The position numbers were made by a program, and so were the translations under genes. From the IMG/VR virus record IMGVR_UViG_2534682078_000023: a stretch of 11,296 bases of DNA. One strand, written 5' to 3'. The notes beneath the pieces are model-generated. The model did not search any database, was not told where the DNA came from, and was given only the letters and a program-made list of their open reading frames with translations. Of this stretch, positions 3,990-5,247 are shown in pieces (within the stretch, counting starts at the first letter, position 1; every line of letters starts with the position of its first letter). This DNA comes from a virus (taxonomy: Duplodnaviria > Heunggongvirae > Uroviricota > Caudoviricetes).

Positions 3990-4061
3990 TGTAGTGGCAC
4001 ACTAAATTTGGCCACCTGATGAAAGGTGATATTCTCACCACAACACAAAACAGGTGACTTA

Positions 4062-4373
4062 ATGAACAAGAAAACCAAACGAACCTTCACCCCTGAGTTC
4101 AGGCTGGAATGTGCACAGCTGATTGTTGATAAGGGCTACTCATATCGACAGGCCAGTGAAGCGATGAATGTCGGTTCAACCACGCTTGAGAGCTGGGTAC
4201 GCCAGCTCAGGCGAGAGCGCCAGGGTATTACGCCCTCTGCCACACCCATTACTCCAGACCAGCAACGTATCCGCGAGCTGGAAAAGCAAGTTCGCCGTCT
4301 GGAGGAACAAAATACGATATTAAAAAAGGCTACCGCGCTCTTAATGTCCGACTCGCTGAACGGTTCACGATAG
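4062..4373 (+). CDS. IS3-family transposase OrfA (HTH and leucine-zipper DNA-binding subunit)
   Basis: Translation [55 protein letters not shown]...[30 protein letters not shown]. Start is placed at the MNKK Met (4062) rather than the track's 4026. Confidence 0.85.
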
Positions 4374-5239
4374 CCGCCAGACTAAGTGACAGCCACACGG
4401 TTGTCAGCCTGTGTTCTGCTCTGGAAATACACCGCAGCAGTTACCGGTACTGGCGAAAACGACGCGATACGGTTAATCCGGCACGAGTCAGGTTGTGCAG
4501 CGAAATACGCCGGGCGTGGAACCAAAGTCGGGGCTCTGCGGGCGCGCGCACTCTGGCTGAAATGCTGACTCAAAACGGCGTCCCGATGAGCCGTTACCGT
4601 GCCGGACGTCTGATGAAATATCTGAACCTGAGCAGTTGTCAGCCCGGAAAACATCAGTATAAAAATGCCCGTCAGGAGCATACCAGCCTGCCGAATCTGC
4701 TTGAGCGTCAGTTCGCAGTACCGGAGCCAGACCGGGTATGGTGTGGAGATATTACGTATCTCTGGGCAGGAAATCGCTGGTGCTATCTGGCGGTTGTTAT
4801 GGATCTTTTTGCCCGCAGGGTTATCGGCTGGAGTCTGTCAGCGCATGCCGATACCGCACTGATAAGCAGTGCCCTGCGGATGGCCTATGAGACGCGTGGC
4901 CAACCCCGGGATGTCGTGTTCCATAGCGACCAGGGAAGCCAGTATACAGGCCTTAAATATCAACAACTTCTCTGGCGTTGCAGAATAAATCAAAGCGTCA
5001 GTCGGCGGGGAAACTGCTGGGATAACAGCCCCATGGAACGCTTCTTCCGCAGTCTGAAAACAGAATGGGTGCCAACGAATGGTTACGCAGGCAAGGACGA
5101 GGCCCGGCAGCAAATTAATGATTACATATTGAACTACTACAACAGCGTCAGACCTCACCATTATAACGGTGGGCTGACGCCGGAAGAGTCAGAGAACAGA
5201 TACCATTTTTACTGTAAAACCGTGGCCAATATTACTTGA
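4062..5239 (+). CDS. IS3-family OrfAB transposase (DDE/RNaseH-fold integrase domain) via programmed -1 frameshift at A_AAA_AAG (4322-4328)
   Basis: The -1 frame downstream of the slippery heptamer reads [30 protein letters not shown]...[35 protein letters not shown]...[10 protein letters not shown]...[19 protein letters not shown]... (DDE motif region). Stop TGA is at 5237-5239. Confidence 0.8.
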
Positions 5240-5247
5240 CCACTACA

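Follow-up and report, generated by a model that had tools for sequence, protein, structure and literature searches.

An IS3-family insertion sequence in the head-tail joining gene FII of a lambda-like prophage of Escherichia coli O111 and the unmatched triplets at its ends

Introduction

Gene FII of a lambda-like prophage is split, in the DNA analyzed here, by a stretch of 1258 bp whose left side is abutted by the triplet TCT and whose right side is abutted by a different one, GCC. The locus thereby raises three connected questions: which element interrupts the gene, where exactly this element ends, and how the three bases on its left side came to differ from the three on its right side. We refer to the whole stretch of DNA under analysis as the window (11,296 nucleotides; IMG/VR virus record IMGVR_UViG_2534682078_000023). 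A previous sequence-only reading of the window had assigned positions 3990-5247 to an IS911-like element of the IS3 family inserted in FII, with a target duplication of 3 bp, while expressing doubt about the exact termini.

Our analysis leads us, with high confidence, to regard positions 3990-5247 as a representative of a widespread IS3-family insertion sequence of 1258 bp; this copy is intact and lies in FII of a lambda-like prophage that the E. coli O111 (STEC) lineage carries at its argU tRNA-Arg gene. The insertion is already known, being annotated in public RefSeq genomes, and represents an ordinary element in an ordinary place. The replaced target triplet is the only point of wider interest, and most of the argument below is devoted to it.

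The interrupted gene and its prophage

The whole 11.3-kb window is 100% identical to chromosomes of E. coli O111:H8/H- (STEC), and at least 80% of it is present in 55 genomes. Annotation of an identical genome confirms that the target is FII in a lambda-like row of head-tail genes (FI-FII-Z-U-V-G-T-H); with D and E included, the genes of that genome run D-E-FI-FII-Z-U-V-G-T-H, and FII stands between FI and Z as in the lambda order. The features of the window are collected in Table 1. FII starts with a GTG codon at position 3706 and reads normally for 94 codons, up to position 3987, and resumes 1258 bp later at PDDGGSCHLW, exactly as had been read from the sequence before. The truncated frame runs five codons into the insertion sequence and meets a stop at 4003-4005, yielding 94 FII residues followed by LVVAH. 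Both halves of the gene flanking the element are annotated in RefSeq as pseudogene pieces of a ‘head-tail joining protein’. The same prophage in E. coli O26:H11 strain 11368 has an intact FII gene, encoding a ‘head-tail joining protein’ of 124 aa, and the DNA of this gene equals the two halves found in the window minus the insertion sequence and 3 bp.

The host phage is a heavily decayed lambda-like prophage, in which the loss of FII is one lesion of several. Only a remnant of the integrase is left, the tape-measure gene H is interrupted by IS1203, and deletions have removed the early region, terminase and portal. The insertion in FII truncates gpFII after residue 94, and the prophage is defective regardless. 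Its sequence differs from that of the O26 counterpart at 22 of 7516 positions.

Table 1. Features of the window, with the evidence for each. Positions are counted from the first base of the window; a cell is left empty where no entry applies.
Feature	Position	Strand	Evidence
fimZ	1-633	-	annotation of identical O111 genome
tRNA-Arg (argU locus)	876-952		annotation of identical O111 genome
integrase remnant	968-1249	-	annotation of identical O111 genome
S49 peptidase, gene C, 5'-truncated	1256-1834		annotation of identical O111 genome
D, E, FI, in this order	between gene C and FII		annotation of identical O111 genome
FII, 5' part, lambda-like head-tail joining gene	3706-3986	+	colinear with O26 allele to ...GGATTTC; RefSeq ‘head-tail joining protein, incomplete, missing C-terminus’
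TCT, anomalous triplet where the left GCC copy is expected	3987-3989	+	comparison with O26 empty site
complete IS3-family insertion sequence, IS911/IS3 subgroup, 1258 bp	3990-5247	+	full-length 100% matches; ends set by 25 other sites
IRL, begins 5'-TG, about 26 bp, imperfect	3990-4015	+	
Rfam isrC (RF01387) match, equal to orfA ribosome-binding region and first 40 codons	4058-4180	+	covariance model
orfA, 103 aa, HTH_Tnp_1 DNA-binding protein	4062-4373	+	ORF and Pfam
slippery heptamer A_AAA_AAG (A6G), zero frame correct	4322-4328	+	sequence and RefSeq ‘programmed frameshift’
orfB, -1 frame relative to orfA, rve/DDE catalytic domain	4328-5239	+	ORF, Pfam, NCBIfam
IRR, ends CA-3', contains TTGACC at 5236-5241	5222-5247	+	
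GCC, single authentic target triplet, continuous with right flank	5248-5250	+	
FII, 3' part (PDDGGSCHLW...), overlaps Z start at 5332	5249-5341	+	RefSeq ‘head-tail joining protein, missing N-terminus’
Z, U, V, G, T, in this order	after FII 3' half (ends 5341)		annotation of identical O111 genome
tape-measure gene H, truncated	to about 10029		annotation of identical O111 genome
IS1203/IS629, cuts gene H	about 10030 to window end		annotation of identical O111 genome

Identity and coding content of the element

The element is exactly 1258 bp long, with its left end TGTAGTGG at 3990 and its right end CCACTACA at 5240-5247. It had been described as an apparently intact IS3-family member with inverted repeats, OrfA, an A6G frameshift site and OrfB, and we found each of these parts in place. 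The terminal inverted repeats are imperfect and end in 5'-TG...CA-3', as in the IS3 family; IRL and IRR agree at 20 of 26 positions in an ungapped comparison, and their first 8 bp are identical. The two-frame organization around an A6G heptamer is likewise that of the family, orfB overlapping orfA in the -1 frame, which reads open from the slip site to position 5239. A -1 frameshift at A_AAA_AAG would give an OrfAB transposase with a conceptual length of 392 aa. In the RefSeq annotation of identical genomes, the same interval carries an ‘IS3 family transposase, programmed frameshift’, with the CDS joined from two pieces.

The OrfAB translation reaches 360.6 bits with the NCBIfam model NF033516 (‘IS3 family transposase’), for which the cutoff is 160, and the match spans positions 1-368 of the 369 in the profile. 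Pfam domains found in it are HTH_Tnp_1 (residues 4-77), HTH_21, rve (222-319) and rve_3. OrfAB has the N-terminal HTH domain and the rve-type DD(35)E core that characterize IS3-family transposases, the residues of the core being D230, D290 and E326, with 35 residues between the latter two and a lysine (K333) seven residues further on. The exact OrfA protein falls into a 90% cluster with 2106 members, and the index of the contig collection places it in 26479 blocks.

Going by its family membership, the element would transpose via a circular intermediate with abutted ends. In the circle junction with its 3-bp spacer, the TTGACC hexamer of IRR would lie 17 bp from the CACACT of IRL, and the two could form a junction promoter; promoters of this kind are known for this class of elements (PMC7780238). 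A frameshift-stimulating RNA structure was sought by folding positions 4300-4440, and the fold was no better than that of shuffled sequence (z = -0.6); an Rfam search of the 1258-bp element gave no match to a frameshift element. The isrC model of Rfam (RF01387), a family of Hfq-binding sRNA, gave an unexpected match of 150.4 bits (gathering score 39) over the entire model (positions 1-123 of 123). The matched stretch falls at the 5' end of the predicted orfA mRNA, and the isrC model may do no more than capture what is left of a related insertion sequence in Salmonella.

Spread and likely activity

The 1258-bp element occurs at full length and 100% identity in hundreds of E. coli records, on chromosomes as well as plasmids, and the copy in the window shows 0 differences in 1258 positions from this common sequence. 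Within the E. coli genome collection, the best match is at least 99% in 938 records, and 2416 of the 5426 genomes contain a match, the places matched numbering about 6000. A further 309 plasmid records reach at least 99%, including plasmids of Klebsiella, Enterobacter, Citrobacter, Salmonella and Serratia, and the plasmid hosts of full-length copies at 100% identity amount to six or more enterobacterial genera. A scan of the GTDB representative genomes for the left end of the element gave two hits only, one in Shigella flexneri and one in an Acinetobacter contig of 210 bp. Since identical copies lie at many sites and the coding capacity is intact, the element is probably active at present. The earlier suggestion that the copy in FII is potentially still mobile is a reasonable one, given that this copy appears intact and is identical to very many others.

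Insertion sites of other copies

We compiled 50 distinct flank pairs of other copies of the element from isolate genomes, viral contigs and metagenome contigs. At 25 distinct sites, perfect 3-bp repeats stand flush with TGTAGTGG...CCACTACA, which fixes the termini at 3990 and 5247. The ends proposed from the sequence were thus right, despite the doubt with which they had been put forward. One site (L090) shows an apparent repeat of 4 bp.

Most of the remaining sites are obvious rearrangements. In one of them (L008) a terminase gene is joined to a tail gene, two others (L042 and L029) are inversion partners, and three (L030, L040 and L044) have one right flank in common. Three more sites (L110, L085 and L116), at which a reading frame stays open across the join, were considered as cases of contiguous flanks with an altered triplet and were rejected, the flanks not being contiguous in any E. 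coli genome; they represent deletions, rearrangements or metagenome chimeras.

A single site (L019) reproduces the geometry found in FII and constitutes a second independent case. It reads CAGGATT GTC [IS] ATC GGTGGG, and the empty site, present in two genomes, reads CAGGATT ATC GGTGGG, so that contiguous flanks go with an authentic triplet on the right and an altered one on the left. We should note that the alteration at this site is a single-base change (a transition) and that, over 196 positions, its flanks show 3 differences from those of the best empty site. A missing repeat is not normal for this element, an altered triplet being found in roughly 2 of 28 simple insertions, which is a small sample. 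One further copy (L049) has TCT on both sides and is of the type expected of a donor.

The target site in FII

The empty site in O26 strain 11368 reads ...GACCGGATTTC GCC GGATGATGG..., that is, ATTTC-GCC-GGATG with a single GCC, and the occupied site in the window reads ...GACCGGATTTC TCT [IS] GCC GGATGATGG..., that is, ATTTC-TCT-[IS]-GCC-GGATG. Joining the window flanks and aligning them with FII-Z of strain 11368 gives 202 against 199 bp, with the three gapped bases as the sole difference. An alignment of the flanks to the uninterrupted lambda gene had been suggested as a check on the target duplication, and the O26 allele took that part here. The proposal of a 3-bp target duplication stands as far as length is concerned, the spacing exceeding that of the empty site by the element plus 3 bp; it fails as to sequence, the extra bases being TCT and not a second GCC. 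Taken literally, the three extra base pairs do not amount to a duplication of the target, and TCT is foreign to the site. The impression that no clean direct repeat could be read at the two junctions was correct, with TCT at 3987-3989 facing GCC at 5248-5250. Direct repeats of 3-5 bp, as expected of the IS3 family, are made by this element in general and are absent at the FII copy. The TCT triplet keeps codon 94 of FII as Ser (TCG to TCT).

An uninterrupted FII gene reading ...ATTTCTCTGCCGG... in a close relative of the O111 lineage would mean that the three bases were present before the element arrived. The joined, uninterrupted flanks were sought in 5426 genomes and were found in none, the best full-length matches all having the 3-base gap; a pre-existing ...TCTCTGCC... 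allele is unsupported.

Origin of the TCT triplet

The reading we favor, and hold tentatively at slightly below an even chance, is that TCT is the 3-nt circle spacer of the donor, which was ligated into the target gap instead of being trimmed, and that it represents a footprint of the donor site. That TCT here and GTC at the second altered site (L019) are both donor circle-junction spacers, ligated into the 3-nt gap and fixed by replication, is a reading we entertain with somewhat greater reserve.

The route that we envisage follows copy-out/paste-in transposition, in which a circle carrying a flank-derived spacer is nicked at both 3' ends and the direct repeats are made by repair (PMC7780238). 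As expected from its family membership, the element would produce OrfA and, through A_AAA_AAG, the frameshift product OrfAB, a DD(35)E transposase that would move it by this pathway. One 3' end would attack 3 bp outside the other end, and replication would convert the product into a double-stranded circle, in which 3 bp of donor flank lie between the inverted repeats. Nicking of both 3' ends of the circle would be followed by their joining to target phosphates with a stagger of 3 bp, a configuration that repair would normally turn into a 3-bp duplication. Nicking would leave each non-transferred strand with a 5' flap made of the 3-nt spacer. At IRL, the top-strand flap (5'-P-TCT) would have the same length as the 3-nt gap. 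If it were ligated to the target 3'-OH and the gap were not refilled, the top strand would read ATTTC-TCT-IS-GCC-GGATG, the sequence that is observed. The resulting 3-bp heteroduplex would segregate at the next replication, and one daughter would be fixed with TCT.

The retention of a donor spacer predicts a donor flanked by TCT. The second altered site has the same geometry as the site in FII, and the copy with TCT on both sides (L049) shows that sites of this type exist. The right end of the element followed by TCT was found in 17 records (counting one place per record), none of them among the O111 strains listed as carrying the window. In strain E2855, which carries the FII insertion, a second copy of the element reads GCC|IS|GCC; it is the only other copy examined there. 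A copy in FORC_042 reads ACA|IS|TCT and has no clean repeat. Both altered triplets, in FII and at L019, stand on the IRL side, and the simple model predicts either side; with two cases, this is uninformative. Several points speak against the proposal: no donor copy with TCT turned up in the O111 genomes, the support consists of the one event here and one weaker parallel, a nick with a T:C mismatch should not be ligated efficiently, and in the full-text literature searched we found no report of spacer retention in natural IS3-family insertions. In its favor, the 5' flaps would correspond to the 3-nt 5' overhangs, taken from the spacer of the circle, that Sekine, Aihara and Ohtsubo reportedly described in 1999 on linear molecules of IS3.

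The insertion could also have started as a normal GCC-IS-GCC, with TCT arising in the left copy afterwards, either through two point mutations or because the 3-nt gap was filled in an error-prone manner. The middle C is common to both triplets, and the left triplet at L019 is off by a single transition. A candidate for such filling is IEE, an error-prone primase-polymerase of EHEC that acts on IS3-family intermediates in a transposase-dependent manner and that is carried by O111 (PMC9943667; PMC5567499), although nothing connects it with the filling of gaps at new insertions. As to point mutations, the chance that a single triplet acquired two independent substitutions would be roughly 1e-5. 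Two changes in one triplet are improbable because the element itself shows 0 differences in 1258 positions and the prophage 22 in 7516; the 199 bp around the site are, moreover, the same as in O26. We consider a later change of the left copy unlikely. Quite unlikely, too, is an aberrant processing of the ends, by which a cut on the IRL side 3 bp outside the end would have produced a 1261-bp unit (TCT plus the element) that integrated without duplication. The net length would be the same, namely the empty site plus 1258 plus 3 bp, but the transposase of the element makes 3-bp staggered joins at 25 other sites. A unit of 1261 bp should still be flanked by a 3-bp repeat, whereas the triplets outside it (TTC and GCC) differ, and a blunt join is no known outcome of this chemistry.

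The usual reason for an insertion sequence without direct repeats is homologous recombination, deletion or inversion between two copies, and other copies of this element have lost their repeats in that way, as seen from the joined, inverted and shared flanks described above and from the three sites whose flanks are nowhere contiguous. Recombination would, however, swap a whole flank, and the FII copy is flanked on either side by half of a single gene, both halves being colinear with O26 up to the triplet. Because both flanks are colinear with one gene, we regard recombination between copies as effectively excluded. An artefact of assembly or sequencing at the repeat boundary has a probability close to nil in our judgment: misassembly at the boundaries of insertion sequences is frequent in short-read data, but an artefact is excluded here because the same junctions are shared by dozens of independently sequenced, complete O111 genomes. 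Among the readings weighed here, which together leave part of the probability unassigned, we retain the ligated donor spacer as our working proposal.

Implications

At the level of the prophage, the insertion is an IS knockout in an already dead prophage, clonally common to O111 STEC, and possibly useful as a lineage marker. If the donor spacer was indeed retained, a measurable fraction of natural IS3-family insertions would carry a 3-bp ‘postmark’ of the donor, and these marks could reveal which copy had moved. Removal of the flap would then not be obligatory in copy-out/paste-in integration, and host repair would have an alternative outcome. The case also calls for caution with pipelines that take perfect target repeats as the test of a ‘simple’ insertion.

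Comparison with known systems

The element resembles IS911 (IS3 family, IS3 group; Shigella dysenteriae and E. coli) in its length of about 1.25 kb, its TG...CA inverted repeats, its HTH-encoding orfA, the A_AAA_AAG signal for a -1 frameshift to OrfAB, the DD(35)E core and the 3-bp target repeats. The C-terminus of OrfA and the TTGACC hexamer in IRR presumably resemble those of IS911 as well. The differences lie in the length, 1250 bp in IS911 and 1258 bp here, and in the transposase, as OrfAB is only about 56% identical in amino acid sequence to the transposase that Shigella plasmids carry under the label ‘IS3-like element IS911 family transposase’. When plasmids were searched with OrfAB by tblastn, the result placed PGAP-labelled transposases of the ‘IS911 family’ (Shigella) among the nearest named relatives, together with those of the ‘ISEc52 family’, at about 56% identity over 98% of the length. 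The latter are as close as IS911 and too distant to be the same element. By the ISfinder rule, isoforms of one element have more than about 95% amino acid or more than 90% nucleotide identity, and at about 56% amino acid identity we rejected the possibility that the element is IS911 itself or an isoform of it. The label ‘IS911-like’ given to it before is apt for subgroup and architecture and does not extend to identity as the same insertion sequence: judged from its sequence, the element shares the architecture and subgroup of IS911 but is a distinct insertion sequence. PGAP gives no label finer than ‘IS3 family transposase’ and no name at the level of the element. The names given by depositors within the OrfB protein cluster are inconsistent (‘IS911 transposase orfB’, ‘IS602’ and ‘IS3 family’), and papers on O111, O145 and Stx phages, in which a name was sought, give none.

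IS629/IS1203 in EHEC prophages offers a parallel of a different kind, as it too is an IS3-family element that riddles and inactivates lambdoid prophages. It belongs to another IS3 subgroup, however, and carries an ALIL pseudoknot as frameshift signal.

With regard to the proposed origin of TCT, the closest stated precedent that we found is that of the mismatched integration intermediates of IS30 (Olasz et al. 2003, cited in PMC9333248), as far as the available excerpt of the citing paper describes them. [quoted passage not shown] IS30 differs from the element studied here in belonging to a different family and in having a spacer and a repeat of 2 bp.

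Features in the window and copies of the IS at other loci
Feature	Position	Strand	Remark
Integrase gene, 3' remnant	968-1249	-	window
S49 peptidase/gene C fragment, 5'-truncated	1256-1834		window
isrC (RF01387) match	4058-4180	+	window; Rfam, 150 bits, whole model covered
IS1203/IS629, second IS3-family element	~10030-11296	+	window; continues past window end
ALIL pseudoknot within IS1203/IS629	10364-10480		window
L019, second natural insertion of the IS	4730-6040		IMGVR_UViG_2541047932_000014
L143, further copy of the IS	1480-2780		E. coli E2855
L014, copy of the IS	280-1580		E. 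coli FORC_042; likewise L124

Other copies of the IS

As at the FII insertion, the left triplet is altered at locus L019, where the IS lies between contiguous flanks and the site reads GTC-IS-ATC; two genomes lacking the IS (empty sites L046 and L047) carry a single ATC. The IS copy in L019 is identical to that in the window (0 differences over 1258 bp). In E. coli E2855 (locus L143), the IS splits an autotransporter gene and is bordered by a perfect GCC-IS-GCC repeat. This genome also carries the FII insertion of the window; that the L143 repeat and the FII target share the triplet GCC is probably a coincidence.

In E. coli FORC_042 (locus L014), the IS is part of a nest of three elements. 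A Tn5/IS50-type end (...TGTGTATAAGAGACA) directly abuts its left side, and on the right side we found an IS66-family tnpC, with the IS sitting within. The same nest was found again in about ten genomes. In a scan of GTDB representatives, the sole non-enterobacterial match to the left end of the IS was a 210-bp contig of Acinetobacter idrijaensis (JQCU01000096.1, locus L015), which may be a contaminant or a piece of a plasmid.

Organization of the surrounding prophage

The left end of the prophage has collapsed. The integrase remnant and the gene C fragment are 6 bp apart, so that the prophage has lost its early region together with the genes for terminase and portal. In O26 11368, gene C is interrupted by an IS66-family ISCro1-like element instead. 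Towards the right end, the tape-measure gene H is cut short at ~10029 by IS1203/IS629, after which O111 genomes encode a methyltransferase in place of tail genes M and L, both of which are retained in the O26 version of the prophage. IS1203/IS629 is thus associated with a deletion of distal tail genes.

FII encodes 124 aa in this phage group and stops seven codons later than lambda FII (117 aa). Near the 3' end of the gene (window 5320-5341), the presumed position of the lambda stop codon is occupied by TGG, and FII therefore overlaps the first codons of Z.

An isrC match on orfA

The isrC match coincides exactly with the ribosome-binding region of orfA and its first 40 codons. Rfam describes isrC (RF01387) as an ‘Hfq binding RNA’ of Salmonella islands. 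Either the Salmonella isrC sRNA goes back to the remains of a related IS, or what the model captures is in effect a fragment of a transposase gene.
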